Source: a virus
DNA length: 64,000 nucleotides
IMG/VR virus record: IMGVR_UViG_3300045988_130745
Reading direction: 5' to 3' (one strand)
A program made the translations under genes and the position numbers. This document shows positions 2,950 to 62,697 of the stretch, piece by piece (positions within the stretch are counted from its first letter, which is position 1; the number at the start of each line of letters is the position of its first letter). Under the pieces are notes generated by a model that ran no database searches, was not told where the DNA came from, and was given only the letters and a program-made list of their open reading frames with translations.

Positions 2950-3201
2950 ATGACTAGGACTGAAGATTTTAGACGCAAAGCCGCGAAGAAGCACATTCAC
3001 AAGCGCGAGAATATCATTAAAAATGTGTATTGTGATAAGGCTTGGTTTGACACAATTAAATCTCAATCACATCGCTTATCAAAAGGTAAAGTTCATTGTT
3101 CTTGTCCTCTTTGCGCCTTTCATGGTGAAACTCGCCAAGATTTGCGTAACCGTCTCGCGCAGATAAATAAGATTAAAGACTATATTGAGGAAGGATTCTA
3201 A
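2950..3201 (+). CDS. hypothetical small basic protein with a CxC...CxxC cluster
   Basis: 83-aa ORF from the track, ATG preceded by AAGGAG. Confidence 0.5.
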   Translation: MTRTEDFRRKAAKKHIHKRENIIKNVYCDKAWFDTIKSQSHRLSKGKVHCSCPLCAFHGETRQDLRNRLAQINKIKDYIEEGF

Positions 3202-3482
3202 TGTTTCGTGAAGTAACTATTGATTCTTTTCGACAGATTAGAGCGCTTCAAAGTACCGCGTGCTAGTATAATGTTCCTATTGGGATTCATGATGCAAATG
3301 GTTCTATTGCAGACGCAAAAAGCATTCTTGGTTTAATGAGTTTAGATTATTCTAAACCAGTAAAGATTGTCGTAGAAGATGAAGATAATTGTCTTTTAAA
3401 TATTCTTGCAAGATGTCTATCTGACGAAGATTGCTTGTGTGCGACTTTTGAACGCTTAAATCCTTGTTTGAAAAAGAATTAA
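3201..3482 (+). CDS. HPr-like domain protein lacking the phospho-His
   Basis: TAATG start overlap. Sequence ANGSIADAKSILGLMSLDYSKPVKIVVEDED resembles the HPr core. One in-frame TAG. No His at the HPr His15-equivalent position. Confidence 0.4.
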
Positions 3483-3557: not shown

Positions 3558-3633
3558 TGACCTTTCAGATAATGGTTAGTCTAGGTGGCTCTAACCCACC
3601 ATGTCTCGGTTCGATTCCAGAGAAGGTCAGCCA
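3558..3633 (+). tRNA. amber-suppressor tRNA (anticodon CUA) with tRNA-Gln-like identity features
   Basis: Anticodon stem ggtgg/ccacc with loop CTCTAAC. Acceptor tgacctt/aaggtca gives U1-A72 and G73, as in bacterial tRNA-Gln. T loop TTCGATT, with a bulged A in the T stem. CCA encoded. Confidence 0.8.
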
Positions 3634-3690: not shown

Positions 3691-3709
3691 AAATAAAATA
3701 AGTTTATGT

Positions 3710-3740
3710 GTCTGGGATATTGCTATTCCAGACATTTTTT
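3710..3740 (+). terminator. intrinsic terminator
   Basis: Stem gtctgg/ccagac followed by a T6 run. Confidence 0.65.
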
Positions 3741-3752
3741 GTATGAGGTAAA

Positions 3753-4322
3753 ATGGAATATTTCACTGGAAAAGGACGTTTAGATTTTGTTAAAGCAATA
3801 ACTGAATTGTTTTGCACGGAATTTCCCTAGACATTGCTGTATTACCGAACTTTTTTTAATTAGTTTTGGTATAAAAGGATTGATAAAAACAATTTTTGGA
3901 TAGATTTATTTCTTGGAATTATTCAATTAGATTTACCAATAGAGAATAAATCTTTTGAAGAAATCGAACAAATTATTTAGAAAATTTTTGTTTTAAATGA
4001 TTAGTATTTAAAATTGGAGATTAACAAAGAAGCAAGAAAACAAATGATTTAGTTTATTTCTTTTTTAATCTGTTATTTCAATTTAAAAGATGTTTCAAAT
4101 TTATCCAATAAAATTCAAATTGTTCAATTAAATTCTTTCCCGCCTAATTCTTTTTTTGGGATATGGGCAATGGAAATTGCTCATAGTTTAAAAATTACAG
4201 ACGGCTGGGAAGAATCAATTATTAAAGAAAATTCTGCACTTGTAGAAGAAACAATAAAACGTTATTATCTGCGCCGGGAGGCTTATTATGAAGACATACT
4301 AGAATGTTAGGGCTAGGATTGA
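3753..4322 (+). CDS. hypothetical protein (TAG-rich), first gene of cluster A
   Basis: Open 190-codon frame only if TAG is sense. ATG 3753, TGA 4320-4322. Absent from the ORF track because of its TAG codons. Confidence 0.5.
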
Positions 4323-4365
4323 CATAGAAGAAGCGCGAAAATATAAGACTTTAAATTTTAAGAAT

Positions 4366-4590
4366 ATGAGTTTGCGTAATCTAATTCAATTAATTTTGAA
4401 AACTTGCCAAGATGAAAGCATAGACCCGACAATTTTGAAAGAATCTTTTGAAAAATATTCTCAAGATTATGTAAAAAATTCAGAAGAGCTTACTAATCTT
4501 GCGCGTGAAATAGCTTTTAAATATGCAGGTAATGTCCCTTGTAATAGAGAAACTAATAATCTTAATTATGTAATTTATCCAGAAGAATAG
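4366..4590 (+). CDS. hypothetical protein
   Basis: 74-aa ORF from the track, directly upstream of radical SAM gene A1. Confidence 0.5.
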   Translation: MSLRNLIQLILKTCQDESIDPTILKESFEKYSQDYVKNSEELTNLAREIAFKYAGNVPCNRETNNLNYVIYPEE

Positions 4591-4606
4591 GAGATAGTAT
4601 ATACTT

Positions 4607-5974
4607 ATGCCGCACAGATTTAAAACATACCAAGAAGAAGTTGCGGAAGCTTTACTTCCTGTTGATTTAGTTACAAAAGGAGATTATTATTTAGGAGCTT
4701 GCCGTGAAGTAACATTTTAGATTACTAATGCCTGTAATTTAAGATGTGATTATTGCTACGAATGTAATAAAAGTTCAGAGAATATGTCTCTTGAAACTGG
4801 CAAGAAAATTTGTGATTTAATTTTAAAAGAAATAGATAAGCCAGAAGGATTTTTAGGACGAAAAACTTTAAGAGGTTTAATTCTTGAATTCATTGGTGGT
4901 GAGCCTTTGCTTTGCCCAGATTTAATTGATGGAATTATGTCTTATTTTCTGCCGCGCTTATATATAATTCGCCCTGAACTTGTTCCTTTTGTGAGAATTA
5001 GCTTAACAACTAATGGACAAAATTATTTTGATTCAAAAGTACAGAAATTTTTGAAAAAATATGAAAGCATTATTAGTCTAACTGTTTCTATTGATGGAAT
5101 AAAGGAATTACATGACGCTCATAGAGTCACAATCGACGGTAAAGGCTCTTTTGATAAGGCTATCGCAGCTTTTGAAGACGCAAAAGCACGGGGATGGAGC
5201 TATAGCAAAATGACTTTTGTTCCTCAAAGTTTTCCTTATATTGCGGATTCAATTAAATTTTTAATCAGTGAAAGTATCCAAGATATTTTTTGTAATTATG
5301 CTTATGAACCTTATTATAATCAAAAGGACGCTAAAGAATTTTATTATCAAATGAAAGAAGTAAGTGATTATTTATTTGATAATAATTTAAAAGACATTTA
5401 TATTTCTTGTCTTGATATGCTTGCGGATGGTAAAAGCTCTATGGAGGGAAATTATTGCGGTGGCACTGGTAATATGCTTTCTTTTGATATGAAAGGTAGA
5501 ACTTTTCCTTGCCTACGCTATCATCCCACCTGTCTTGGAGAAGAACTTTCAAGTACCGTTTAGCTCGGAGATTACAATGGTCTTTATCAAACTGAAGCGC
5601 AATGTAAGGCAAGAGATTGTTTAAATTGTATTACTTATAAATCTCAATCAGAACAAAAATGTATTGATTGTCCTGTTAGTTCTAATTGTGGCTGGTGCAG
5701 TGCGAATAATTTGCAAATGACTGGTTCAATTAATAAACGAGTAACTAATATTTGCTGGGCACATAAAGGAAGAGTTTTAGCTGGGTATTATTATTCTGCC
5801 AAACGTTATTTATTATGGCATGATTTTCGTCCTATGAAAATTTGTTTACCAGACGAAGATGCACTTCAAATTATTTCTCAATCTGAGTGGGATGGATTAA
5901 AAGCATTGGTAAATGAAGCAATTACTGTCTTCGAGAAAGAAAAAGACCCTCTACTTATTTCTTAGGAGGGATGA
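4607..5974 (+). CDS. radical SAM / SPASM-domain maturase A1 (anaerobic sulfatase-maturase-like)
   Basis: VTF[TAG]ITNACNLRCDYCYE gives the CxxxCxxC motif. GGEPLL is present. C-terminal CIDCPVSSNCGWC is SPASM-like. Track fragments 4784-5563 and 5711-5965 join in frame through TAG codons. TGA at 5972-5974. Confidence 0.8.
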
Positions 5975-5977
5975 TTT

Positions 5978-6625
5978 ATGAGTTTAACAAAAGGCAGTAA
6001 AGTTGAAGCTTCAGATTGGAATAATCTCGCTGATGCTTATAATTCTGAAATTGTTGATCGTCGAAAGGTAACTAACGTTAAAATCACTGGCGCGCAGATA
6101 GAATAGCAGATTAATTCTAATTCTACTATTGAGCCTTTAATTGCGGGATTGACTGCAACTACAAATGGCAGAATGGTTAATGAAGATGGTTCTTTAAGTT
6201 CTAACACTTATTCAGTTGCAAAAGGTAGAGGGACTTTGATTTATCCTCTTGAAGATCATCAAAAAGTTCTTTTACAGCTTTCTAAAATTAGTGTTTTTGC
6301 AGAGCCAGGTAAGAGCGGTTGCTACGGTAGCTGTGCTGGGTTATGTGCAAGCGGATGTATGGGCAATTGTAAAAATACTTGTACTGCGGCTTGTAAAAAC
6401 GATTGCGAGGGAACTTGTAAAACAGGTTGTACTTCATGTACCGGCACTTGTTCTGGCGGTTGTTCTAGCTGTTAGGGTGGCTGTGAAGGTTCTTGTTCTG
6501 GCGGTTGTAAAGATAGTTGTGTCCAAGAATGTAAATCAAGTTGTCATGATGCTTGTATGGGTTGCCAAAGTTCTCATGCAAGTTAGGGTTGTTCTTATTG
6601 CGAATGTGGTAATTATCCAGGGTGA
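5978..6625 (+). CDS. Cys-rich CxxxC-repeat protein (candidate maturase substrate)
   Basis: 215 aa. About 100 N-terminal residues lack Cys. Then comes a run of more than 25 Cys, mostly spaced CxxxC (CYGSCAGLCASGCMGNCKNTCTAAC...). Three in-frame TAG. TGA at 6623-6625. Confidence 0.75.
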
Positions 6626-6630
6626 TTTAT

Positions 6631-7221
6631 ATGTATCAAGATGGATATGTTACGCGCAGGGGATTTCTTCAAAAAGTTAAAGATGCTATATTTGATATAG
6701 ATATTGATGGAGAATTAAACGATTTTATTTTTAATCGTAAATGTTATGGACCATCAGATTATTCTCTCTTGCCCTTATTATTTTTAAAACTTGTGGCTTT
6801 ACGAAAAATTAATCATGTTCATCTTGAAAAAAATATCCGTTTTATTGTTGATAAAGCGGATATTTATTTTAATTTAGTTTAGCCGCAATATCACAAAGAA
6901 TTTGTTAATCAATTATCTTTATTGCTTTTATTCTTAATGCGGAGTGATAAATTAGCAATTATATTGTCTCAGAATTAGCTAATTCAAGAGATACTCAATT
7001 TTAAATTATTAAATAATTATATTATTATTTATTTTGCTTATATAGTTTTTAAAGAATTTGAAAGTGTTTATTCCTAGGGGAAATATTTAAAGTATTTCCG
7101 CGCGAAAAATCTTTCAATTATTTCTAATCAACTTTATATTTTAAATAATCATATTGAACAAGTAGAATATTTAATTTATAAAGATTATGAAGAAACTTGG
7201 ATGTGGACTTATGGTGACTAA
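6631..7221 (+). CDS. hypothetical protein (cluster A)
   Basis: ATG 6631. The frame continues through several TAG codons to the TAA at 7219-7221. Confidence 0.5.
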
Positions 7222-7540
7222 AAGAGTTTTTTAGCTAAGTGAAAAAGATAGAATTGAATTGATAAATTTAAACCATAGTATTTAGTCATATGAATAGTTT
7301 ATAGCTTTTATTACTAAATAGTTCTATTCAGACACTTGTGTTATTGAGCATAGCGTTTTAAAAGATTGGCTAATTAATTATTCCGAATAGCTGATTGCTT
7401 GGATAGAATAGAGAAATAGATTATGGGAGTCTATTAATGCTCAATTTGAATATAATATTTTGACGATTCCGAAGATTAAAAATATTTCTTATTCTATTGA
7501 TGCAGAGAAAGGAGTAATTATTTATTGTTATGAAAATTGA
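7211..7540 (+). CDS. hypothetical protein (cluster A)
   Basis: ATG 7211. 110-codon frame is open only with TAG as sense. TGA 7538-7540. Overlaps both neighbours. Confidence 0.4.
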
Positions 7541-8810
7541 AAAACGCTTTGGAGCGATGGCTAATTCTGCTTCTATTGTTTTTTAGATTACGGAATCTTG
7601 TAATTTAAATTGCTCTTATTGCTACTAGCATTTTAAAAGTCCTCGGACATTAGATTTAAATACTGCAATAAAAGAATGTCAAGAAATAATTCGGCTTCTT
7701 GAACAAGAAAATGGAATTTTAGGTAAAAATAATGTAAAAGAATTGACTATTTCTTTTATTGGCGGCGAACCATTTCTTTATCCAGAAATAATGGATATGA
7801 TAATTTAGATGTTAATGTCAGGTATCTCTATTGTAAGACCGGATTTATTACCTTTCATAAGACTTTCATTAAATACCAATGGTACACTTTTATAGAGAGA
7901 AGATGTAAAAAAATTTATTCTTAAACATGAAGATATATTAAATATTGCTCTTTCTCTTGATGGTATTAAAGAATTGCATGATAAAAATAGAATTAACCAA
8001 AAAGGAGAAGGAAGTTTTGACAAGGCTTTTAAAAATGGTTTATGGCTAAAAAAGCATGGCCTAGACCATATTAAAATGACTTTTTCAAAAGAAGATATTA
8101 ATTATATAGCTCCCTCTTTAAAATTTTTTCTTGAAAATGGTTTTAAACATATTGTCAGTACACCTATTTACGAAGACATTTATACCAAAAAAGATGCCCA
8201 ATAGGTTTATAAACAATGTAAAGAAATTGGGCAATACGTAATTAGCAATAAAATTTGGGATGAAAGAATTAGTATTCTCAACGAATACCCCGGATAGATT
8301 CTTGATTTTTCTAATTACCCTTGTGAAATTTTCGGAGATTCATTTTGTTTTTCAGTTGATGGGAAAGCATATCCATGTTGTCGTTTTGCTTCAACTTCTT
8401 TAAATAATAATTGTATAAATTATTCAATAGGAGATTGTGAGAAAGGGATTTTTAATTCAAATGATACCCTTTCGCGCGAAGAATTGAAAAAAATGACAGT
8501 CAATACTTGGATTGATAATGAATGTTTGAATTGTCCAATTTCTGGTGGCTGTGGTTGGTGTCCTGCTTATTGCGCGGAATTAGGGCAATTTGGAAAACGC
8601 ACCAAAGGTAACTGTTGGTTTCATCGTGCAAAAATTTTAGCGCTTTATAATTATAAGAATTAGCGTTCGATTATTTTAGGAGACTGTCAACCAGAGCCTA
8701 TAAAAATTCCAGAAGAAATTGCTCTTAAAATTATATCCCAAGAAGAATATGATACTTTAAAAGAGCAATATAGAAAAGCAAAAATTGCGTAGGCTTCGCG
8801 CAATAAATAA
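7530..8810 (+). CDS. radical SAM / SPASM-domain maturase A2 (paralog of A1)
   Basis: IVF[TAG]ITESCNLNCSYCY[TAG] carries TAG at the same position as in A1. GGEPFL is present. CLNCPISGGCGWCPAYC is SPASM-like. 427 codons to the TAA at 8808-8810. Confidence 0.8.
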
Positions 8811-8811
8811 A

Positions 8812-8840
8812 TTGACTTTCCTTAATTCTTATGCTATAAT
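8812..8840 (+). promoter_or_regulatory. family promoter
   Basis: TTGACT 8812-8817 and TATAAT 8835-8840 plus ATTTATAGAAAATCAAGAGAG leader. Confidence 0.75.
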
Positions 8841-8879: not shown

Positions 8880-9596
8880 ATGTATTTTCTTGGAGATGTT
8901 CATGCAGAATCTCCTTTAATGGAAGGTTTTCTTGAATCAAAAGAGAAATATTGCCTTCAATTAGGTGATTTCGGCTTTATTTTCAAGTATAATGATTGGA
9001 AATGGAATAAGTTTCTTAATCATTTCGCGCGAGATTATCCAGAAAAAATGATTTTCACTATTTTAGGTAATCACGAGAATTATGATTCTATTGAGAAAAT
9101 GCCAATTAAGACAATATTTGGTGCGCGGTGTAGAGAAATTCGTTCAAATGTGTACGCAGTAGAGCGTGGAGAAATCCTTTCTATTGAAGGACTGAATATT
9201 CTTTGTATTGGTGGCGCGGATTCTATTGATAAAGTATATCGAGAGCCTAAAGAATCTTGGTGGCATCAAGAAGCAATTACCAGTCAAGATGTTATTAAAA
9301 CCGTAGACAAAGGTTTAACTCATTCTTTTGATATGATTTGTTCTCATACAATGCCTGCATTTTTTATGGATAAAAAATTTGCAACGCTTTTTAACACAGG
9401 TTCAGAGTTTTCTCTTGAAAAAATTTATTGCGATATTGAAAACAATGATAAACATATTCCTTTGTGGCTTGGCGGCCACGTTCATGCTTCAATAAGTTTA
9501 TCTTATAATGATACTTTATTTCGTACTCTTAATATTGGAGAAGGAATTGAATATCGTCAAGGAGACTCAATTAAAGATAAATTTCTAATCCAATAA
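8880..9596 (+). CDS. calcineurin-like metallophosphoesterase
   Basis: GDVH, GDFG, GNHE and GGHVH motifs in canonical order. No TAG. Confidence 0.75.
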   Translation: MYFLGDVHAESPLMEGFLESKEKYCLQLGDFGFIFKYNDWKWNKFLNHFARDYPEKMIFTILGNHENYDSIEKMPIKTIFGARCREIRSNVYAVERGEILSIEGLNILCIGGADSIDKVYREPKESWWHQEAITSQDVIKTVDKGLTHSFDMICSHTMPAFFMDKKFATLFNTGSEFSLEKIYCDIENNDKHIPLWLGGHVHASISLSYNDTLFRTLNIGEGIEYRQGDSIKDKFLIQ

Positions 9597-9995: not shown

Positions 9996-10082
9996 GCTCG
10001 TGTGGTGGAATTGGCAGACACCAGGGACTTAAAATCCCTTGTTGGAAACAGCGTGCGGGTTCAAATCCCGCCATGAGCACCA
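9996..10082 (+). tRNA. tRNA-Leu (UAA), type II
   Basis: Acceptor gctcgtg/catgagc, anticodon loop CTTAAAA, long variable arm, T loop TTCAAAT, CCA encoded. Confidence 0.85.
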
Positions 10083-10216
10083 GTGGTTAGAACCAAACCA
10101 TTGACCAAAAGGTTCTCGAACGCCTTATCGTTACATGTGTGCTGACTTGGGCAGGTTCAAGATGAATCTGCGGCCTGGCACAGGCAGAAAAGAGCGTGGT
10201 TGCTCAGTGCTTATAT

Positions 10217-10295
10217 GGGGGATGGAATTGCTAGGAGTGATTGCCTGTTTTGCAAACAGGATAGCAGATGGGTTCGAATCCCATATCCTCCACCA
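10217..10295 (+). tRNA. tRNA-Ala (UGC)
   Basis: Anticodon stem cctgt/acagg with loop TTTGCAA. G3-U70 pair in acceptor gggggat/atcctcc. T loop TTCGAAT, CCA encoded. D arm is unusually long. Confidence 0.65.
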
Positions 10296-10374
10296 TTAAA
10301 TCTTTCCGAAACGGCGAGGGTCGTAGCGAATTATCTAAACGTAGCCAACGTTTTCTGGCGGCACAGGAAAGATT

Positions 10375-10455
10375 AAGACACATTTCAGCAAATTTTAATT
10401 ACCTTGCCATGTTTAAGGTATCCGACATTGCCGGATTTTATTATTTAGTGTCTTG
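10375..10455 (+). ncRNA. stem-CAGCAA element E2, in the 5' leader of the DUF2828/vWA gene
   Basis: Helix aagacac/gtgtctt and TTTCAGCAAA. Ends 27 nt before the ATG at 10482. Confidence 0.5.
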
Positions 10456-10481
10456 AGTTCCTCAAGAGAAAGGAAGAATAT

Positions 10482-11972
10482 ATGAATAAGTTTGTAAATG
10501 CTATTTCCAATGAGGCTTCTCTTAATGGTTCTGCGAAGTTGACCGAGAATGGTGCAATTGCTCGCTCTACCACTGGGGATTGTCTGCTTGATTTTTATGC
10601 GGTTTCTGGTGCGTTGCGTACTCGCAGTGAAGCTGATATTTTGAGTCTCTTTAAGAAGGCTTGGAATGAGAATCCTCTGTATGCGCTGAAGACTGTGTTT
10701 ATGACTCGTGATATTCGCGGTGGACGTGGAGAGCGTCGTACTGCTCGTATCATTCTGAAGTATCTGGCAGATGTCGCGCCGCAGACTGTTATCAAGAACT
10801 TTGATAATATCATGGAGATGGGTCGTGCTGATGACTTTTATGAGTTCGTTGGCACTTCTGTCGAATCTGCTATGTGGCAGTATTTGCGTAATCAGATTGT
10901 TGAAGACTTGAAGAATATGCGTGCGGAGAAGCCTATTTCTTTGACCGCAAAGTGGCTGAAGTCTATTAACACTTCTTCTAAGGAGTCTCGTGCGCTTGGT
11001 CGTAAGACTGCTCGTGCGCTTGGCCTGACCGAACGTGAATATCGTAAGACTCTTTCTCGGCTGCGTAATTACCTCAAGGTTGTTGAGGTAAAGATGTCTG
11101 CTGGCGAGTGGACCGATATTGATTATGCTGCGGTGCCTGCTGTAGCGATGAATCGTTATCGTAAGGCTTTTAAGCGTCATAATCCTTCTGCTTTCGATAC
11201 TTATATCGAAAAGGTCGAAAAGGGTGAAGAGAAGATTAATGCTTCTACTTTGTATCCTTATGACCTGGTAGAAAAGATTATGCAGAACAATAGCTACTGG
11301 TCTACTGATGTTAAGGAAGACCCCGTTATTGAAGCTCAGTGGAAGGCTTTGCCCAACTACATTGAGGGTGAGAATAACGTGCTGGTTATGGCTGACGTAA
11401 GTGGTTCTATGTATGGTCGTCCTATGGCTACTTCTGTTGGCTTGGCAATTTATTTTGCCGAGCGCAATAAGGGTGCTTTTAAGAACACTTACATGACCTT
11501 TACTAACTGTCCTCATTATATCCAGATTCAGCCTGGTCAGACTCTGGCGGAAAAGGTTGAAGCCGTGATGCGTACTGATGTCGGTTATAGCACTAATTTG
11601 GAGCGTGCATTTATGCAGGTTCTGGATACTGCCGTGATGAATCGTGTACCTCAGAAGGATATGCCTAAGGCAATGGTGGTTATTTCCGACATGGAAATTG
11701 ATCGCTACTTCCGTGGACAGGGACTTGATTTCGTGTCTGAGATGGTCCGTCGTTTCCGCGCGGCTGGCTATCAGATGCCTCGTCTGGTTCTTTGGAACGT
11801 ACAGGCTCGTTCCAACACTTTCCACGCCAACTCTACTAATCCTTATGTTACTTTTGCGAGTGGGCAGGGTGTTGCGGAGTTTAAGAATGTGTTGGCCGGC
11901 ATTTCTCTTGACGCTTATGCAGCAATGATGAAGGCTTTGGATGACGAGCGTTATGCTTCTGTTGTCCTGTAA
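10482..11972 (+). CDS. DUF2828-like protein with C-terminal vWA domain (TROVE/Ro60-like architecture)
   Basis: 496 aa. N-terminal helical region contains NPLYALKTVFMTRDIRGGRGERR. C-terminal MADVSGSM fits a DxSxS MIDAS motif. No TAG. Clearly higher GC than its neighbours. Confidence 0.7.
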   Translation: MNKFVNAISNEASLNGSAKLTENGAIARSTTGDCLLDFYAVSGALRTRSEADILSLFKKAWNENPLYALKTVFMTRDIRGGRGERRTARIILKYLADVAPQTVIKNFDNIMEMGRADDFYEFVGTSVESAMWQYLRNQIVEDLKNMRAEKPISLTAKWLKSINTSSKESRALGRKTARALGLTEREYRKTLSRLRNYLKVVEVKMSAGEWTDIDYAAVPAVAMNRYRKAFKRHNPSAFDTYIEKVEKGEEKINASTLYPYDLVEKIMQNNSYWSTDVKEDPVIEAQWKALPNYIEGENNVLVMADVSGSMYGRPMATSVGLAIYFAERNKGAFKNTYMTFTNCPHYIQIQPGQTLAEKVEAVMRTDVGYSTNLERAFMQVLDTAVMNRVPQKDMPKAMVVISDMEIDRYFRGQGLDFVSEMVRRFRAAGYQMPRLVLWNVQARSNTFHANSTNPYVTFASGQGVAEFKNVLAGISLDAYAAMMKALDDERYASVVL

Positions 11973-12793: not shown

Positions 12794-13588
12794 ATGTATA
12801 ATCCTATTTGTGGTATTTATAAAATTACTAATTTGATTAATGGACATTGCTATATTGGGCAAAGTAGGAATATTAAGAAACGATGGGAAGAGCATCGAAC
12901 TAGAGCTTTTAATATTAAAGATGATGGATATAATTATCCTCTTTATAAAAGTTTTAGAAAATATGGTCTTTAGAACTTTTCTTTTGAAATAATTGAGCAA
13001 TGCTCAGAAAAGTAGTTAAACGAAAAAGAAAATTATTGGATTTAGTTTTATTAGGCAAATTATAATTAGACTATTGGACAAGATTATTAGGTAGTTCCTA
13101 AAAAATTAACAATAGAGGAAGTACAAGAAATACAAAATTACTTAATTGAAAGTTCAAATGATTCTTTAGATATTTCATTAAAATAGTTGGCAGAAAATTA
13201 TCATGTTTCTTAGCTTACTATTCGAGATATTAATGTAGGACGTTCTTGGGCTAATAGTAAATTAAAATATCCTTTGTACCAATCTAAATATAATCCGAAT
13301 AATAAAATAACTAATAACTATTGTCCTATTTGCGGATAGAAAATTTCTTAGAAAGCTAAATTTTGTCCTCAGTATTATTCAACTATAAATATCAGTCCTC
13401 GAAAAAGTAAAATTAATATCACAAGAGAAGAATTAAAAAGACGAATTAGAATAGAATCTTTTTCTTAGATAAGCAAAGATTTTAATGTTAGTGATAATGG
13501 TATAAGAAAGAAATGCCAAAAGCTAAATCTTCCTTATCGTAAGAAAGATATAGATACTTATTCTGATGAAGAATGGGCAAAACTTTAA
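12794..13588 (+). CDS. GIY-YIG homing-endonuclease-like protein (copy b)
   Basis: MYNPICGIYKITNLINGHCYIGQS... 265 codons are open only with TAG as sense (many TAG). C-terminus resembles copies a, c and d. Conserved leader upstream. Confidence 0.85.
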
Positions 13589-13611
13589 GAGGTTTTACCT
13601 CTTTTATATTG

Positions 13612-13688
13612 CGGGATGTAGCAGTAGTTCGCTAACGGGTCTCATAAGCCCGTGTAGGCCGTGAGCATAACCGGCTCCCGCATCCAAT
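13612..13688 (+). tRNA. tRNA with CAU anticodon (Met, fMet or Ile2)
   Basis: Acceptor tgcggga/tcccgca, D stem tagc/gcta, anticodon loop CTCATAA, CCA encoded. T arm is non-canonical. Confidence 0.6.
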
Positions 13689-13833
13689 AAAACCTTCGTT
13701 AAAACAACTCTCTAAACCTTTGGGTCTACGGTAGTGCTTTGACGGAAGCCTAGGTTAAGCGTAATGAGTTGACGAGACCTAGTTAATTACAGATAAGCCA
13801 GCGGGTTTCTGCGAAGGTCACCCGCAATCATAC

Positions 13834-13909
13834 GGGTATAGCTCAGTTGGTAGAGCATCTGGCTTACATCCAGAAGGTCAACAGTTCAAGCCTGTTTATC
13901 CGTTCCATT
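13834..13909 (+). tRNA. tRNA-Val (UAC)
   Basis: Acceptor acgggta/tatccgt, D arm agctcagttggtagagc, anticodon loop CTTACAT, T loop TTCAAGC, CCA encoded. Confidence 0.85.
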
Positions 13910-13913
13910 AGAG

Positions 13914-14000
13914 ACACATTTAAAACAGCAATTATTTTTGGTTAAAATACTAATCTGATAAATTGGTTAAGCAGTTCAAATCTGTAAGTTGTGTCTTGTT
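13914..14000 (+). ncRNA. stem-CAGCAA element E5 (contains one T-arm-like hairpin)
   Basis: Helix agacaca/tgtgtct, CAGCAA, internal gcag-TTCAAAT-ctgt hairpin, 3' TG then TTTT. Confidence 0.45.
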
Positions 14001-14004
14001 TTGC

Positions 14005-14093
14005 GGAGTGAACCAGTCGGGGAACTGGGTACGCCTGCTAAGCGTTACGACAGAGAGATCTGTTTGGGGTCGGCACCCACGCTCCGCGCCATA
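14005..14093 (+). tRNA. tRNA-Ser (GCU), type II
   Basis: Acceptor gcggagt/gctccgc, anticodon loop CTGCTAA, variable-arm hairpin acaga-gaga-tctgt, CCA encoded. T loop GTCGGCA is atypical. Confidence 0.7.
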
Positions 14094-32327: not shown

Positions 32328-32348
32328 TTATATAAAATTCTTAATGTT

Positions 32349-32380
32349 AGTGCTCTCCATATTGGAGGGCACTTTTATTT
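32349..32380 (+). terminator. intrinsic terminator
   Basis: Stem agtgctctcc/ggagggcact followed by a T-rich run. Confidence 0.65.
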
Positions 32381-32412
32381 TAGAACAAAATTTTTTATAG
32401 GAGGAAATCGCA

Positions 32413-34770
32413 ATGGATATACTCCTTTTCGGAACTCTCCGAAAATATATCGACGATACTCTTCAAGGCATGGGTGCGCTCAAAGGCGAAAAAGGCGATC
32501 GTGGAGAAAAAGGTGCCCAAGGTCCAAAAGGCGATAAAGGCGACAAGGGAGACAAAGGCGCACAAGGACTTCGCGGTATTCAAGGCTTAACTGGTGCCAC
32601 TGGCGCGAAAGGCGAACGTGGCGCTCAAGGTATCCAAGGTTTAACCGGCCCCCAAGGTATCCCTGGCGTGCAAGGCATCCAAGGTCCAAAAGGCGAGAAA
32701 GGTGACAAAGGTGAAACCGGTCCCGTTGGTAAACGCGGTGTCCCTGGAGTTAATTACAACATTAAATACTTCTTGTCTACTCTTAATGAATTAAATGCCA
32801 TCACTCCTGTTACCGGTTATGACGAAGCTATTTTCGCTTATGTTGCTGAGAATAAATCAATCTATTATTCTTATGAAAGTTCTCCTTGGGCTTTCTTTGC
32901 AGATGCGTCTAATCTTTAGTTTGCGCGCGGAGAGCAAGGTGAGCAAGGTCCTCAAGGTGAGAAAGGTGATAAAGGTGACCAAGGCATTCAAGGCATCCAA
33001 GGACCGCAAGGTATCCAAGGGCCTCAAGGTCTTCAGGGCATCCAAGGAGGTAAAGGAGATAAAGGCGACAAAGGCGACAAAGGCGACCCTCTCACTTGGA
33101 ATGAAGTTCCAGCAGCTGCGCGCAAAGAACTTAAAGGTGAGAAAGGCGACAAAGGCGACACTGGTGATTCTGGTGTTTATTATGGTCCAACTGAGCCAGA
33201 AATTGACCAAGAAAAACTCGTTTGGATTGATTCATCAGTAGAAGAATCGGCTACCACAATTGATATTGCCAACATTCCTGGACTTCAAAAAGAACTTGAT
33301 TCTAAAGTTCAACTCCCAGCCAAAATTGAAAATGATACTCAATTATTTCCCGTTGTAACTTCAAAAGGTACGTCATGGGTCACTCTTGAAGAAACTGTCA
33401 ACGGAATTGTTAGTGAATGTGTAAATATCATCGTGCGTGGCACAGACAATGCGACTCTTAAAGGCACTGAAATTTATCTTCACGATGTAACAACTGACAC
33501 TATATCTACTTTTGAATGGAATGGAACCAGTTTGACTATTTATGTTTTAAATGGACACAAATATTTTATCAGTGGCGCTGAAGTTGAAGGATATGAGCCT
33601 GCCGCGGATAGTTTACAATATATTGCGCGAGCTGCATAGACTCGTACAATCACTTTATCTTATCCGCGCTCAGAAGAAGCAGAATATGGCATCCGATTTT
33701 TAATTGAATCATCAGATCCATCATGTGAGCGTGTAGTAGTCAAAAATAATATTACAACTTATGGCGAAGATACGGGTTTGGTGGCTGCTATTGGTACCAA
33801 ACTCACTATGCCTAAAAACAGTTTTGACGACATCTATCCTTGGTCAGATATTCGCATTGTAACTGATTCTGATAATGCTGCCGAGGCTGCGCAAACGATG
33901 GTTAAAATTCCAAAATATTATGTCAAGGTCACTGTTGATGATACCTATGAAACTTGGATGATTAGTCGTTATAAAAAAGCAGGATACCGTGTCGCAAAAA
34001 TGTTTGCTCGTCCTGATGGAACCGAAGCAGACTATTATGAATATGCCCGTTACGAGACCAGTGACACTAATCGTTCTCAAACTGGCGTCACTCCTCAAAG
34101 TTCAACCACTATTGAAGCATTTAGAACTGCCGCTCTTGGATTAGGTGATAATTGGCATCCAGCTGGACTTGCAGATCGAACTGATGGACTTCAGATGCTA
34201 ATGACTATTGAATTTGCTACTCGCAACATTCAGTCAATAGCAGAAGGTTTGGTTAATTCTAAAACCGTTTCTGATTGCGGTTTGACCGATGGTTTAACTA
34301 TTACCGAAGATTCAAAGGGCATTAAGCCTTATTCTGGTATTGTTAAAAATGCTTTTTCTTATCGTGGAATTGAAAACCCTTACGGTAATTTACTTGAATA
34401 TGCTGATGGTATTATTTTAAACAATTCTCGTGTGTACTATTGCGACGATTGGACTCGTTGGAGTAATTCAATCAATTCAAGTTACGTTCAAGCCGTTGGT
34501 ACTATTCCAACTTTAAGCGGATTTATTACTAAATTGAATTATAATGAAGCTAATCCTTGGATGCGTTTGCCTAGCGAAGTAGTCACTACTGGCGATAGCG
34601 ATAGTAATTATGGCGACTATTATAATGCTCCAACCGCAGATTATACCTTGCCAGTTTATGGCGGTGGTTATTCTACCAATTTGCGTGCGGGCTTATTCCA
34701 CTGGAATTGTACTCGTACTTTTAATGAAACAAATAGAGACATTGGTTCTCGTTTGGCTCGTAGTTTTTAA
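32413..34770 (+). CDS. collagen-like (GXY repeat) tail fibre protein
   Basis: Track ORFs 32413-32919, 33433-33639 and 33778-34770 are in frame (786 codons) and join through TAG. Two GXY blocks ([19 protein letters not shown]...). Confidence 0.75.
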
Positions 34771-37143: not shown

Positions 37144-37461
37144 ATGGACATAATTACACTTGCGTTGACTCGTAAGGCAGTTAGAGATGCTCACGTTGAC
37201 CATATAGGACCACAAGGACCGGTTGGACCGAAAGGTGAGAAAGGCGATAAAGGTGACCCATTTACTTGGAACGATCTCACTGCGGAGCAAAAGAAAGAAT
37301 TAACTGGTCCAAAAGGTGATAAAGGCGATACAGGTGGAGTTGGCTATGTCTCTTTTGAGAGTGGCAACGATGGACACTTGTACGCCGTTATTGCCGAAGG
37401 GACTGATGAAATCAGTTTCAGAATTTCCGATGATGGTAAGCTGGAGGTAATCTACGCATGA
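37144..37461 (+). CDS. small collagen-like protein
   Basis: 105 aa with [17 protein letters not shown] and [10 protein letters not shown] blocks. Confidence 0.6.
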
Positions 37462-39881
37462 GTAAAAGAATAGATTTAGGCGCAGTAACCGCTTACGCCA
37501 TTGCAGTTAAAAATGGATTTGAAGGCACAGAAGTAGCCTGGCTTGCAAGTCTTAAAGGTGCAAAGGGCGACAGGGGTGAAAAAGGCGAGCAAGGCGCGCC
37601 AGGTATTTAGGGAGAAAGAGGAGCAACTGGTGAAACTGGCCCTATTGGCCCTCAAGGTATCCAAGGACCAAGAGGTGCTCAAGGTGAGAAAGGAGATACT
37701 GGCAATGTCGGCCCAGCTGGTCCTCAAGGACTAAAAGGCGAAACTGGTGCAGTTGGACCAGCTGGGCCGCAAGGTAAGCAAGGCATCCAAGGTGAAAAAG
37801 GTGAAACTGGTGCTGCAGGCGCCCGAGGTGAACAAGGTCCGCAAGGTATTCAAGGCATTCAAGGTCCAAAAGGCGAGAAAGGCGATCCTTTCAGTATAAA
37901 GAAAATTTATGTTTCTGTTGCTGCAATGAATGCTGATTTTGACGGTACTGATACTTCTACTGGTGATTTTGTTCTTATTAACACTGGCAATGTTGCAGAT
38001 GAAGATAATGCAAAGCTCTATGTAAAAGGCGAGAGTGCTTTTACTTTTGTCACTGATTTGTCCGGCGCGGCTGGTATACAAGGTCCGCAAGGTCCTCAAG
38101 GAGTGCAGGGTGTTCAAGGAGAACAAGGTATTCCGGGTGTAAAGGGTGACAAAGGTGATCCAGGCTCTGATGCAACTGTCACTACTGATAATATCACCTC
38201 TGCTCTTGGCTATACTCCCGCAGATTCAACCAAAGTTTACACTAAAACTGAAGTTGACGGAATGATTGATGGTGTTTATGCTCAAGCCGTTCGCAATGCG
38301 ACTTCTGTTGCTCAAGTCAACGGCTTGTTCCAAGAGTGGTGGAAGAAAAATTGGGTTGAAGATACCTCCACCCACACTCAAATGCTTGAGCGTTGGTTTG
38401 GAAATGTTCTTACCAGTAGCAAGGTTTATGGTACCAAGCTACCTTTGTTTGCTACTTCAAATAGTGCAAATGGCGAGTATATTGACGATTCTGTTGGCAT
38501 GACTTGCACTCCTTCAACTAACGCAGTTCTTGGTCAAGATGACTTCGCATTCAAGCCAGAGTTCTGGTGCATCGAAGCATCTGGTGAGCATAATTCTGAC
38601 GGTTCAATTACTATCTATGCTGTTGAATTAATTGATGACATTGCTACCGTTCGTTCTGGCGAGCATTTGACTTGGGTTCTTCAAAAGAATACTTATTGGC
38701 ATGAATATACCAGTGAAGGTTATCATTTCGTCGAACTCAAATCAACTCCTGATGAAACTTGGCATCGTTGGCCGCAAGGTACATCAAAAGATGGTACAGT
38801 TCATGAGTTTATTGCTAACCCGAAGTATTATGCCGGAATGAAAGATGGAACTATTACTGTTGGCACTAATCTTCCTGCAATTAATTTTACTTCTCATCAA
38901 TCTGGCGTTGCTCTATGGCGCAAGCGTGGCAGTCAATACTCTGGCGCGAGTGGCAACCTTATCAAGTTCCTTGATATTATGATGAAGTTAAAGTATGCTA
39001 AGAAAGGTAACTCTGGGACTATTGAAGGTTGTTCAAACTATAACTGGCAATATACTACTCCTGTTGGCGAGACAGGCGTAGAACGTATTATTGTTACTAC
39101 CGCGCAGGGTGCAAATATTAAAGTTGGCTCAACTGTTATTATTGGTAAGAAAGGCGGCTCTACCGATCGTGGCGATAGTGCTATGAGAAGCCTTGTTTCA
39201 ATGAAGAAAGTCAAAAGTTTGGAGCCAGTCACTATTGATGATACTTCTTATACAGCCGTTAATATTGATAATGGCGGAACAACTTTTGATACAGTTGCGA
39301 GTGAGACAATGATTTCTTCTATGCCTTATCACTCTGGATACAATGACAACGTATTAGGTTATGATGGCAGTGCAACTAATTACACCAATGGTTCTGAACC
39401 TGGTTTGCTCCAGAAGATTGAGTTCCAGAATGGTGCTTATCTGATTATTTCAGATGAATTGTGGCAATGGAGCAAAGATGATACAAACTATATGTTTGAT
39501 TGCTATACTTGCCATGATTAGTCAAAAGTTACTACTAATGGAACAATTTCTTCTGACTATACAAAGCAAGCTGATTTGACTTTGAAGTGGGCAGTTGAGG
39601 GTGCTAATACAAGTTGGCACTGGGAATATATTGAAGATACTGCAATCGCTAATGATCCAGCAGTTTGCTGGCCAGCTAAAGTATCCACGACAGCTGGTAG
39701 CGGAACTGGTTGTAAAGCTGGCTTCGGCGTCGCTTTGGCGTCGTCTGGTGTGCGTGCTGGTTGGTGTTTCTGCGGTTTGTGGGGTGGCGGTCTTTGTGGT
39801 GTTTCAGCTCGTAACTCGGACGTTTCTCCTTCGTATTCTGGCTGGTACGGGGCGCTCGGCGGTCCAGGTCTTGCGGGGTGA
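37458..39881 (+). CDS. collagen-like tail fibre protein carrying the DGR variable region at its C-terminus
   Basis: ATGA overlap start. 807 codons in one frame, joining track ORFs 37926-39521 and 39576-39881 through TAG. GXY blocks are present. The last roughly 55 codons are the VR. Confidence 0.8.
39719..39865 (+). repeat. DGR variable repeat (VR)
   Basis: 147 nt align without gaps to 40222-40368. All 19 mismatches I counted sit at adenines of the other copy. Confidence 0.85.
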
Positions 39882-48026: not shown

Positions 48027-48773
48027 ATGCATAATCCTATTTGTGGTATTTATAAAATTACTAATTTGATTAATGGAAAATGTTACATCGGTTAGAGTGT
48101 GAATATCAAACAAAGATGGAGAGATCATCGTTCAAGGGCCATATCCAAAGGTTCAGAAGGGTTTGAGAGTTATTTTTATCGTTCTATTAGAAAATATGGA
48201 CTAGAGAATTTTTCTTTTGAAATCTTGGAAGAATGTCCTAAAGAATAGTTAAATGAAAAAGAGCAATTTTATATTGCAAAGTATCATTCAAATCAAGAAA
48301 GTTTTGGTTACAATTTAACTGAAGGCGGCGATTCTGTAGGAGGAAAAGCAAAGAAACTTTCTGATAAAGAGTTGCAAAGCATAATTTATGATTTGAAGAA
48401 TACGTTGTTATCATAGGCTGAAATTGGGTAGAAATACCATATTGCTTAGACTACAGTTAGTGGTATTAATCGAGGAGAATTTCGTTATTAGGACAATGAA
48501 ATTTATCCATTAAGGACAAGAAATGTTTTAAAAGAACGTGGTTTTGTTGATGGCTATAAGACTTGCCCAATTTGCGGAAAGAAATTTCAAGGCAAAGCTA
48601 AAACTTGTTCGATTGAATGTGGTAAAATTCGTGTAAGAAAAATAAAAGTAATTCCTAAACGAAGTGCTTTAAAATATCTAATTCGTAATTATTCATTTGA
48701 ATGGATTGGTCATCAATTCGGAGTAAGTAGTAACACAATAAAGAAATATTGTGATAAAGCTAATTTACCTTGA
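48027..48773 (+). CDS. GIY-YIG homing-endonuclease-like protein (copy d), ending at a premature-looking TGA
   Basis: MHNPICGIYKITNLINGKCYIG[TAG]SVNIKQRW. The conserved C-terminal tail (SYSDGEWEKV) continues in frame after the TGA at 48771-48773 up to the TAA at 48822-48824. Confidence 0.75.
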
Positions 48774-55262: not shown

Positions 55263-55289
55263 GACATAAACATAATTTTATGTTATAAT
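55261..55289 (+). promoter_or_regulatory. sigma70-type promoter of cluster B (TTGACA variant)
   Basis: TTGACA 55261-55266, 17-nt spacer, TGTTATAAT. Lacks the family ATTTATAGAAA tail. Confidence 0.65.
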
Positions 55290-55311
55290 GATTATAAAAG
55301 GGGTGAAACAA

Positions 55312-55848
55312 ATGGCTTGGACTTAGGGTGGGGCAATAGGAGCTTCTGAAGTTAATAATTGGTATACTAGTCTTAATAAAACTATTGGAAGTTATGGCGG
55401 TGGAATTGCATAGCTATCTAATCCTATAAGAGCGGGAAGAGACGTATATGCTTCTGATTTAAATAATTTAATAACTAAATTAAACGAATTAAAAAGAGAC
55501 GAATATTTAAGCTAGGCAAGTTATGGTAGTTATAGCTCAGTTTCTGTTGGATAGATTATTCGCGCATCAGATTGGACTGGAATAAATTCAAGTATTTCTA
55601 GTTTGACTGGTGTAAAATGTCGGAATAGAGCTACTTATACAAATGGCGCATCTACAACTACTAATGGTAATGGAGTATGTCGGCAAGGCTATGATAGTAA
55701 TGGAACAGATTAGAATGGCGGAATGTGGGCGAATACTTGCACGAACGGTTGGTATGATAATTCTTCAAATTCTCATGGCACAAATAGCGCTAGTCCAAAT
55801 CGTAATGGCAGTAGGGTAGATATATGGTGTCAAAATAGCACGGGGTAA
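55312..55848 (+). CDS. Gly/Ser/Asn-rich protein with C-terminal Cys residues (candidate substrate of cluster B)
   Basis: 178 aa, with six in-frame TAG, so invisible in the ORF track. GASEVNNWYTSL and IRASDWTGINSSI echo EASDWNNLADAY of the protein at 5978-6625. C-terminal region has 5 Cys among N/G/S/T. Confidence 0.6.
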
Positions 55849-55850
55849 AA

Positions 55851-57197
55851 ATGAATAAAAAAGATACTGCAATTTTTTATAGCTGCGGAATTTGTAATTT
55901 AAATTGCAATTATTGCTGTATAGATAAAAATCCAATTTTGAAAGAGATAGATAAAGAATTAGGAGAAAGTTTTTAGGGAGACTATTATTTTAATCAAGTA
56001 AAAAAATATTTCCCATTACCAGGTTCTCTTCGCCAAATTGAAACTTGGGGAGGCGAACCATTTTTAAAAATGGAACGAATGCATAATTTAATTCGTCAAT
56101 TATGCGATTATTATTTTTATTTTAATAGTTTTTATAGTTCTACAAATTTCTCATTTCCTCAATGGGCAGATAAAGTTTTAGATCTATTGAAGGTTTTTGG
56201 GGAATTTTCTCCGCGTCGCTTTACGATACATTTACAGCTTTCTATTGACGGACCAGAATATATTAATGACAGAAATAGAGGCATTGGGACTACTCAAAAA
56301 TGTTTAAATAATTTTAATATTTTGATTTCTCGTTTGCCAAATGAGTTGCCTAAAAATATAAATTTGATAATTACAACTAAAGAAACTTTAGATAATTCTT
56401 CTATTATGGCTTTAGATTCTAAAAATAAAGTCATAGAATATTATCAATTTATTGAAAATAATTTTATTAGAAAAATAGATTTACTTAATTTGGACAATGT
56501 TAAAATAGAATTTTGTATTCCTAATACAGCAGATCCTTCTCCAGTTACAAAAGAAATAGGAAAGCATTTTGCAAATATCTGTAAATGGTGCAGAGAAATA
56601 GAACAAGAAAATGAAAAATATGGCTATTTTAGATATTATAAATCAATTACTCCTTTTTCTTAGAATGTTGACAATTTAAAATTGTCTTATAATTATCCAA
56701 ATTACACTTGCGGGACTGGTTATAATATGATTGGATTTTTACCGAATAATATGATTGCTAGTTGTCATGAAAGTTTTGTTTACTTAATTGAAAAATATAA
56801 AGATTTTGCAAAAGAATAGATGTCAACTGAAGTAGATAAAACCATTAATTTTAATAATTTTATTTCTAATTGTAATGCTTGTAAAATGTGTATGTCCGAG
56901 AAAAATTTCCCTGAGCATGAAAGATGTATGTCGTATTATAATCAATCTAATACGATGTTTAGATTAGCAAATATTACAAATGAAATTATGTGTTTAGCAT
57001 TGGCAAAACAAATAGATCCTAAATATGCTGAAGAAGAAAAAGCTCTTTCTGCGGCGATTTATCTTCAATCCGCTACCGCTTACTGTATAAAAAATAATTA
57101 TGAAATGACAGGAAGCTATAGTTTAGTTTCAGATGGGATATTAAAATTATTATTTAACGGAGCAGCAGATATTATTGAGGGAATAAATGATGTATAA
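55851..57197 (+). CDS. radical SAM enzyme B1
   Basis: YSCGICNLNCNYCC gives the CxxxCxxC motif and WGGEPFL is present. Track ORFs 56070-56663 and 56820-57197 are in frame (449 codons) and join through TAG. Confidence 0.75.
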
Positions 57198-58606: not shown

Positions 58607-58886
58607 CACTATTTTTAATTTAGGTCCTATATTTTCTTTAGAATATGGCAATATTACTAAAGAAGATTTTGTAAATTAGGATATTAAAAGTATGTCTTTT
58701 GATTGTTGTACTCTTGAAAGACAAATGCTAGGAAGTATCGAACGGACTTTTATAAAAGAGGATGGCACAGTTAAAAGGGAAAAGGTTTATAATCTCTATC
58801 CAGAAGGAGCATTAAAGCAATCTTCAAGGTGCCTGAACGCATTTGGGGAAACCGTTTTTAATTGGGAGAATAAAAATGAATTTTAA
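58590..58886 (+). CDS. hypothetical small protein of cluster B
   Basis: ATG at 58590. One TAG joins it to track ORF 58692-58886. 98 aa. Confidence 0.4.
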
Positions 58887-62620: not shown

Positions 62621-62697
62621 ACGGTTGTAGCTTAATAGGATAAAGCTGCGTGATTCCTAATCCGTCTATACCAGTTCAAATCTGGTCAGCCGTTCCA
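62621..62697 (+). tRNA. tRNA, probably Arg (CCU), with a bulge in the anticodon stem
   Basis: Acceptor acggttg/cagccgt, loop TTCCTAA if one stem nucleotide is bulged, T loop TTCAAAT, CCA encoded. Close relative of the Arg(UCU) gene. Confidence 0.55.

Follow-up and report, generated by a model that had tools for sequence, protein, structure and literature searches.

What is made by a phage gene cluster in which two radical-SAM enzymes accompany a single protein built in large part of evenly spaced cysteines? Such a cluster, here called cluster A, lies on the plus strand at positions 3753-8810 of the window, i.e. the whole 64,000-nucleotide stretch of viral DNA that was analysed (IMG/VR virus record IMGVR_UViG_3300045988_130745). 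It encodes the enzymes A1 and A2, a 215-amino acid (aa) cysteine-rich protein (the Cys protein) and four small hypothetical proteins, h1 to h4. At a rough probability of 60 %, cluster A is a phage-borne, divergent and duplicated CXXX-repeat system, in which a late-made, probably virion- or fibre-associated protein is cross-linked by the maturases, probably via thioethers.

A1 (4607-5974, 455 aa, 3 TAG codons) and A2 (7530-8810, 426 aa, 8 TAG codons) are radical-SAM/SPASM maturases. Both match the Pfam model Radical_SAM PF04055 (44.9 bits for A1 and 53.3 bits for A2); the Pfam SPASM model gave no match for either. By a wide margin the best NCBIfam match of both enzymes is TIGR04115, "radical SAM peptide maturase, CXXX-repeat target family", with 270.7 bits for A1 and 200.7 bits for A2 and with model positions 2-359 of 359 covered. 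After TIGR04115 follow the PapB, CcpM, SCIFF and QhpD-type maturases, the PapB model (NF047865) being the second-best family at 152.7 and 141.7 bits, respectively. A1 also matches phrog_1802 of the PHROGs. Among solved structures, the nearest in sequence are those of the thioether maturases CteB, ChlB and SkfB. The first-pass annotation of this DNA had taken A1 and A2 to be enzymes of the peptide- or protein-maturase type and had named profile searches beforehand as the check; with TIGR04115 as the top family and thioether maturases as the nearest structures, this was borne out.

The iron-sulfur ligands of both enzymes are intact. The CX3CX2C motif (C43, C47 and C50 in A1 numbering) and the SPASM cysteines (C284, C302, C352, C355, C361, C364 and C383) show no variation between A1, A2 and three relatives. 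A1 and A2 share 36 % identity (BLASTP, E = 4e-91) and are classed as paralogues, A1 being nearer the single maturase of Faecalibacterium-type prophages (49 %) than A2 (36 %). The radical-SAM motif begins at residue 43 in A1 and at residue 24 in A2, leaving approximately 35 and 15 residues ahead of it. The alignment of A1 to CteB opens only at CteB residue 98, which indicates that in A1 and A2 the N-terminal peptide-binding (RRE) domain by which CteB and PapB recognise their substrates is missing.

The gene for the Cys protein (5978-6625) starts 4 nt past the A1 stop codon. Residues 1-114 (5978-6319) are free of cysteine, and residues 115-215 (6320-6625 including the stop codon) hold 25 cysteines. 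A cysteine-free N-terminal region followed by a near-continuous CxxxC array had been described earlier and is what we see, although the count is exactly 25 and not more than 25 as then stated. Successive cysteines are exactly 4 residues apart in 18 of the 24 intervals and 3 residues apart in another 4, and 18 CxxxC intervals were reached in none of 100,000 shuffles of the C-terminal region. The third X of the repeat is Asp or Glu in 2 of 18 units. In a homologue of 71 % identity all 25 cysteines are kept, whereas the non-Cys positions of the repeat are 57 % identical. The Cys periodicity is thus judged to be selected at the protein level, because the cysteines are kept while other positions diverge and because no tandem repeat is found at the DNA level across the array. 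Beyond the repeat the protein ends in a tail without periodicity, CMGCQSSHASQGCSYCECGNYPG, and this too is conserved in the 71 % homologue.

The repeat consensus of the wider family is C-[ST]-G-[SGT], and the motif at the junction of N-region and repeat, C-x3-C-x-G-L-C (C115, C119, G121 and C123), is invariant across 138 family members. The Cys protein itself weakly matches TIGR04114 (E = 0.008) and TIGR04117 (E = 0.007). The database homologues P0001, P0002 and P0004 are annotated as PF27846, 'tSAM_targ_Cxxx_rpt', and the homologue in locus L020 scores 23.4 bits on TIGR04114. AlphaFold2 (AF2) predicts helices at residues 11-29, 38-46 and 91-102 of the N-region with a predicted local distance difference test score (pLDDT) of 70-85. 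These three are the only confident helices, the overall pLDDT being 36 with 10 sequences and 59 with 138 sequences in the alignment.

The pairing of enzyme and Cys-periodic protein is conserved far beyond this phage. A Cys-repeat ORF (open reading frame) lies within about 2 kb of the enzyme in 27 of 27 complete IMG/VR loci with an A1 relative. A scan of bacterial genomes gave 333 loci, and in 66 of the best 80 of these 333, in which the pairing was counted, a same-strand ORF with the family N-domain and the Cys repeat stands beside the enzyme. The synteny check named in the first-pass annotation thus came out in its favour. By BLAST clustering, 109 sources have a member of the Cys-repeat family and 108 a member of the enzyme family. 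With a profile of the N-domain, 571 cluster representatives (50 % identity clustering) were found among 1.84 billion proteins; given these and the 333 bacterial loci, the family is therefore common in gut Clostridia. The enzymes of these loci pass the TIGR04115 cut-off (386-521 bits). The conserved pairing argues that enzyme and Cys-periodic protein form a real enzyme-substrate system.

The first-pass annotation knew of no described pairing of this kind, but a radical-SAM enzyme with a CXXX-repeat target is already a curated in-silico family (NCBIfam TIGR04115, TIGR04114, TIGR04117 and TIGR04116; Pfam PF27846), and RefSeq names such enzymes 'radical SAM peptide maturase, CXXX-repeat target family', with the Cys-rich and accessory neighbours given as 'hypothetical protein'. 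By its sequence, cluster A is a divergent, duplicated and stop-codon-recoded variant of this known, biochemically uncharacterised family. We know of no chemistry or function for a TIGR04115-type CXXX-repeat system. No description of a phage or tail-fibre CXXX-repeat system was found in a full-text literature search, which did not cover the likeliest source papers on the family. In the GenBank phage collection the N-domain was found in no cultured phage, the sole match being the metagenomic record MT835573.1.

The target proteins of the family vary widely, from 141 to 496 aa and from 11 to 95 cysteines. The conserved domain follows the repeat in L113, L114 and P0007, and carries large insertions in P0011 and P0111. 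P0029, verified as a single gene, has an extra N-terminal domain of about 176 aa ahead of the module. In some loci two Cys-repeat genes go with one maturase (L001, at 10001-10612 and 13392-14042 of that contig, L042 and L046), which is the opposite stoichiometry to that of the window.

Cluster A resembles the curated CXXX-repeat system in having a cysteine at every fourth residue of a target encoded beside the enzyme and a small accessory gene directly upstream of the enzyme, and bona fide members share the N-domain and the gene order of the relatives of cluster A. It differs in that its enzymes and its target are all under the curated cut-offs, and in having two maturases, each with an accessory pair, around one target. 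It is further read with TAG as Gln, lies away from tail genes, and has kept the N-region only in the first helix.

Among characterised maturases, QhpD is a radical-SAM/SPASM enzyme that places thioether cross-links in a folded protein subunit, QhpC, and not in a short peptide. The likeness of A1 and A2 to it is weak (TIGR03906, 69-72 bits against a cut-off of 453), and QhpC has a few Cys-to-Asp/Glu links, no repeat and no phage context. CteB, the SCIFF maturase (PDB 5WGG), and the sactipeptide maturase SkfB likewise combine radical-SAM and SPASM/twitch domains and act on Cys-rich peptides (E = 8e-16 for CteB). However, the N-terminal stretch of about 97 residues that forms the RRE of CteB is missing in A1, and SCIFF peptides have about 45 aa and six cysteines, compared to 200-500 aa and 25-95 cysteines in targets of the cluster A type. 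PapB, a SPASM radical-SAM enzyme as well, forms several Cys-derived thioethers along the repetitive core of freyrasin (PMC12373016). The acceptor of each PapB link is an acidic residue on the C-terminal side of the Cys, and the leader is held by an RRE that is part of PapB (PMC12373016). A1 and A2 are far under the 340-bit cut-off of NF047865, and the Cys protein is sparse in acidic residues.

The relatives of cluster A point to phage tails. The bacterial loci, almost all from Clostridia (Faecalibacterium, Gemmiger, Oscillospiraceae, Lachnospiraceae, Neglectibacter, Desnuesiella, Anaerobacterium and Vallitalea), mostly look like prophage tail modules. In Anaerobacterium chartisolvens (L066) the genes run from P2 GpU through a gp25-like gene, whose Pfam match is weak and under the cut-off, Baseplate_J and Tail_P2_I to a tail-collar fibre (PF12571). 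The Cys-repeat gene comes next, then genes for 185 and 112 aa, and last the maturase. The Baseplate_J match of L066 belongs to a gene family with members in 52 loci. Among the genes immediately upstream of the Cys-repeat gene, 7 of 10 representatives match PHROG tail or tail-fibre families, and 16 of 61 upstream neighbours end in a C-terminal motif, LWIDT..G..KYYNG..W, compared to 16 of 1083 background ORFs. On a 60-kb viral contig (L001) fibre genes lie on one side of the cluster and the tape-measure gene on the other, and the two Cys-repeat genes flank one maturase.

The link to tails is one of adjacency and not of fusion. Apparent tail-fibre::Cys-repeat fusions in L061 (586 aa), L066 (614 aa) and L101 (521 aa), and a fibre::radical-SAM fusion in L114, were rejected. 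All four are from standard-code bacteria, in which the in-frame TAG is a real stop, and the parts are adjacent genes. Calling ORFs with TAG as sense in standard-code loci yields such false fusions (L061 3215-4975, L066 3186-5030, L101 4367-5932 and L114 5176-7185), since the fibre genes end in TAG a few codons before the in-frame start of the Cys-repeat gene.

A similar arrangement is present in the Erwinia jumbo phage ChrisDB (vB_EamM_ChrisDB, NC_031126.1, L116), where three small Cys-repeat ORFs have a 'virion structural protein' gene on one side and two radical-SAM genes on the other. Its Cys-repeat ORFs match the profile only via the biased Cys repeat and not via the N-domain; they are regarded as an analogy and not as proven homologues. 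One of the ORFs, at 3097-3480 of that locus, is unannotated, has 127 aa and 21 cysteines, and runs on the strand opposite to the annotated gp188, which is probably annotated on the wrong strand. Its neighbours are the Cys-repeat genes gp187 and gp186, the 'virion structural protein' gp189 and the radical-SAM genes gp184 and gp183. Within the window, collagen-like Gly-X-Y runs occur in the large ORFs 32344-34770, 37144-37461 and 37458-39881, which are probably the phage's own fibre proteins and do not contain LWIDT..KYYNG..W.

When cluster A is read with the standard code, all genes of 3753-8810 are broken by TAG; with TAG as a sense codon there are seven contiguous genes on the plus strand. 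TAG is predicted to encode glutamine in this phage, because it alternates with CAG and CAA in orthologues: in gapless alignments of 8-9 related genomes TAG swaps with CAG or CAA at 50 of 54 variable orthologous codons. The close relatives, which are 96-98 % identical, share this arrangement; they are contigs of 111-179 kb and come from a single IMG sample. A nucleotide search of the phage collection gave a single 132-bp match and nothing else. The cluster contains 32 in-frame TAG codons, for the reading of which a tRNA with anticodon CUA is needed, and such a suppressor tRNA was found with ARAGORN on the plus strand at 3558-3633, immediately 5' of the cluster. The TAG load of the cluster A genes is 0.66-5.1 per 100 codons, the highest density in the window except for homing-endonuclease-like ORFs, and is zero in both flanking genes.

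These features suggest how the system may work. Since none of the seven genes can be read through without the suppressor tRNA, the 215-aa protein would be a late product of the infection. Borges and co-workers reportedly associated, in 2022, a heavy load of recoded stop codons with late genes in recoded phages. The N-terminal helix and the invariant junction motif may serve as the docking and start site for the enzymes. A1 and A2 are each probably aided by the proteins of about 110 and 190 aa encoded just upstream, which might replace the missing recognition domain or else act as fibre-assembly chaperones. The two enzymes would then modify the Cys array by radical chemistry. Cross-links from Cys sulfur to carbon, i.e. 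thioethers, are the likeliest outcome, because every characterised near relative (PapB, CteB, SkfB and QhpD) makes them, and the Ser and Thr residues of the repeat consensus are possible acceptors. Once cross-linked, the Gly/Ser/Thr-rich repeat could be a rigid rod or knot, stable to both reduction and proteolysis. With two maturases for one substrate A1 and A2 may divide the labour, and the non-periodic C-terminal tail is a candidate for a second modification site. The product is most likely not secreted as a peptide but associated with the virion, as a component of a fibre, tip or adhesin, because in most relatives the homologous gene adjoins tail-fibre genes and often lies directly downstream of one.

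A number of results weigh against this reading. A1 and A2 fall short of the TIGR04115 cut-off of 350 bits, and the Cys protein is under that of TIGR04114 (16.7 compared to 20 bits). Its N-region fits the family domain over residues 1-35 only, at 11.5 bits (conditional E = 2.9e-5, with a profile built without close relatives). The repeat region is poorly modelled, with a pLDDT of about 50, and Foldseek searches of PDB and BFVD gave nothing meaningful beyond one uncharacterised homologue. The residue at position i+4 after a Cys is another Cys in 18 of 24 cases, and not the acidic acceptor that PapB needs. The cluster in the window is not beside tail genes, its neighbours being tRNA genes, homing-endonuclease-like ORFs and a phosphoesterase gene, and the C-terminal fibre motif is present in no window ORF. 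The slot between tail-fibre and lysis genes in prophages is, moreover, a classic site for accessory 'moron' genes. Finally, h1 and h3 have no detectable similarity to each other or to the proteins of about 185 aa found elsewhere, and the ties of h2 and h4 to the accessory family are weak.

As one alternative, the cluster could be an accessory 'moron' and not a structural module, its product being a giant ribosomally synthesised and post-translationally modified peptide (RiPP), similar to a bacteriocin. The N-region would then be a leader, and lysis, or the lysogen itself, would set free the cross-linked core to act as a toxin, a signal or a factor that kills competitors. The architecture of precursor, radical-SAM/SPASM enzyme and small accessory proteins is indeed RiPP-like, the curated family is called 'peptide maturase', and several prophages place the cluster between fibre and lysis genes with Amidase_2 downstream. 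In the window the cluster lies outside the structural genes, and the same phage has a second RiPP-like cluster with a YcaO enzyme. We nevertheless consider a giant RiPP the less likely reading, albeit a plausible one, above all for the window. No protease, transporter or immunity family was found among the scanned cluster genes and the sampled neighbours of related loci, and targets with up to 95 cysteines in 141-496 aa are far above known RiPP cores. It also counts against a giant RiPP that the conserved domain may be C-terminal to the repeat, or may bear large inserted or added domains. Furthermore, in L001, L020, L060 and L067 the cluster has tail-fibre paralogues on both sides, or fibres on one side and the tape-measure gene on the other, and the heavy TAG load of cluster A favours late lytic over lysogenic expression. 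Among the products proposed in the first-pass annotation, a cross-linked structural or adhesive protein thus appears to fit the context of the relatives better than a giant RiPP.

It is possible, but less probable still, that the Cys array binds metal or iron-sulfur clusters, in the manner of a metallothionein or a metal-stapled fibre tip, and that the enzymes perform other chemistry (formylglycine formation, epimerisation or methylation) or use another substrate. A region so rich in Cys, Gly, Ser and Thr could bind metal, the chemistry of TIGR04115 is not known, and acidic acceptors of the PapB type are not at the expected spacing. Models of sulfatase maturases match A1 and A2 weakly, at 54-65 bits, but the anaerobic sulfatase-maturing enzyme model TIGR03942 has a cut-off of 349 bits (scores 53.7 and 65.3), and the thioether-maturase families score three to five times higher than the sulfatase maturase. 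The sulfatase motif C/S-x-P/A-x-R is absent from the Cys protein on inspection of its sequence, and the window has no second Cys-rich ORF that might be the target of A2. The strict, genome-wide co-occurrence of the repeat protein with one enzyme family also points to an enzyme and its substrate. As for an artefact, i.e. a chance or off-frame Cys-rich ORF in low-complexity DNA beside radical-SAM pseudogenes, the TAG interruption of every block gene in the standard code and the alternative-frame ORFs that overlap the repeat (e.g. 6249-6680) could suggest one, but it is refuted by conservation and recoding and is extremely improbable, given the exchange of TAG with CAG/CAA in 50 of 54 cases with a tRNA-CUA next door, the gapless alignment of all genes across 8-9 related genomes, the hundreds of homologues with conserved Cys and synteny, and the lack of a DNA tandem repeat.

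Returning to a cross-linked, fibre-associated protein, we put forward tentatively a broader proposal, which we hold with less confidence than the reading of cluster A itself. The CXXX-repeat system as a whole may be a widespread phage device that staples a tail-fibre-associated protein by radical-SAM chemistry, probably with thioethers, and not a bacterial RiPP pathway. If so, it would provide a redox-proof substitute for disulfides in the adhesin or fibre tip of phages that infect strictly anaerobic gut bacteria. A rigid, reduction-resistant module would be useful to phages of strict anaerobes, where disulfides are unreliable. It would also, as far as we know, be the first radical-SAM post-translational modification of a virion protein, and the phage of the window would have a two-enzyme version of it. 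Should the cross-linking be true, radical-SAM chemistry would join the phage routes to stable adhesins in reducing, protease-rich habitats, with enzymes that process 25-95 cysteines in one substrate. The CXXX-repeat family has long been catalogued without a chemistry, a product or a role, and the link to phages and tail fibres provides a testable idea. Neglectibacter timonensis, Anaerobacterium chartisolvens, Desnuesiella massiliensis and Gemmiger formicilis are cultured candidate carriers.

The accessory genes show how cluster A departs from its relatives. The usual order in these is the target, a gene of about 185 aa, a gene of about 100 aa and the maturase. The right side of the cluster in the window keeps this order as Cys protein, h3, h4 and A2, and h1, h2 and A1 form an extra triplet on the left. 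The plus-strand genes h1 (3753-4322, 189 aa, 7 TAG codons) and h3 (6631-7221, 196 aa, 3 TAG codons, with an alternative GTG start at 6622) are without a family match and occupy, by position only, the slot of the accessory gene of about 170-195 aa in related loci. No similarity was detectable among the proteins of about 185 aa of related loci either. The smaller genes, also on the plus strand, are h2 (4288-4623, 111 aa), the end of which overlaps the start of A1, and h4 (7187-7540, 117 aa, 6 TAG codons), the end of which overlaps the start of A2. The first-pass annotation had placed three hypothetical genes before A1, where there are two; A1, the Cys-rich protein, two further hypothetical genes and A2 were as it described.

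None of h1 to h4 has a match in Pfam, NCBIfam or PHROGs, and the accessory proteins of about 100 and 185 aa have no credible family or PDB match. In hhalign comparisons with the profile of the accessory family F2, h2 reached a probability of 52-64 % (E = 7e-5 to 1.5e-4) and h4 one of 13-41 % (E = 3e-4 to 2e-3) in an end-to-end alignment, and h2 and h4 share 25 % identity in BLASTP (E = 0.002). Thus, h2 is probably a divergent member of the F2 family of about 100 aa, and h4 is regarded as a putative small accessory protein by its position and weak profile similarity. TIGR04116 was matched by 1 of 24 F2 members (E = 0.005), and neither h2 nor h4 had an NCBIfam match.

The block is bounded upstream by a terminator-like hairpin on the plus strand at 3708-3735, with a 12-pair stem followed by a T-run (TTTTTGTATG). 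Downstream, on the same strand at 8812-8840, is a promoter-like site (TTGACT, a 17-nt spacer, TG and TATAAT) with 11 of 12 matches and an extended -10 TG. This site is the strongest of the region and opens the next unit, which begins with the TAG-free metallophosphoesterase gene 8880-9596 (Metallophos, PF00149). Both of these boundaries agree with the promoter-to-promoter block described previously, but no convincing promoter was seen in the interval between the terminator and h1.

The second RiPP-like region of the phage, cluster B (55288-60636), encodes a 186-aa Asn/Gly/Ser/Thr-rich protein with 5 TAG codons, together with a radical-SAM gene (55824-57197), a second radical-SAM/SPASM gene, a 104-aa ORF and a YcaO-domain protein (58876-60636; TIGR00702, 82.6 bits, above the cut-off). 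Its G+C content of 0.26-0.27 is the lowest of the window. The 186-aa protein was considered as a relative of the Cys protein and rejected, as only a 16-residue motif is common to the two (hhalign, E = 0.009) and the N-domain profile gave no match. In the second radical-SAM/SPASM gene the reading breaks at a run of eight A (near 58221-58229), where the frame 57187-58251 gives way to the overlapping frame 58217-58606. The split divides the halves of the SPASM Cys motif and reflects either an error of sequencing or assembly or else slippage at this site.

The tRNA(CUA) at 3558-3633 is one of 28 tRNA genes in the window and was labelled 'Pyl' by ARAGORN, which also reported a tRNA-like gene of undetermined identity at 62621-62697 with a two-base 'anticodon', cc. 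The use of TAG is uneven over the window, being rich in clusters A and B and in three homing-endonuclease-like ORFs, with the regions 42-44.9 kb and 51.4-54.1 kb free of TAG. The three ORFs (1907-2629, 12794-13588 and 48027-48773) are paralogous, open with '...ICGIYKITN.INGKCYIGQS' and look GIY-YIG-like by eye. They have 6-13 TAG codons each, at the highest TAG density of the window, and are interspersed with the tRNA arrays. Finally, the segment 10001-12000, which contains a 522-aa ORF of unknown function (10404-11972), has a G+C content of 0.45 compared to 0.30-0.34 on either side.

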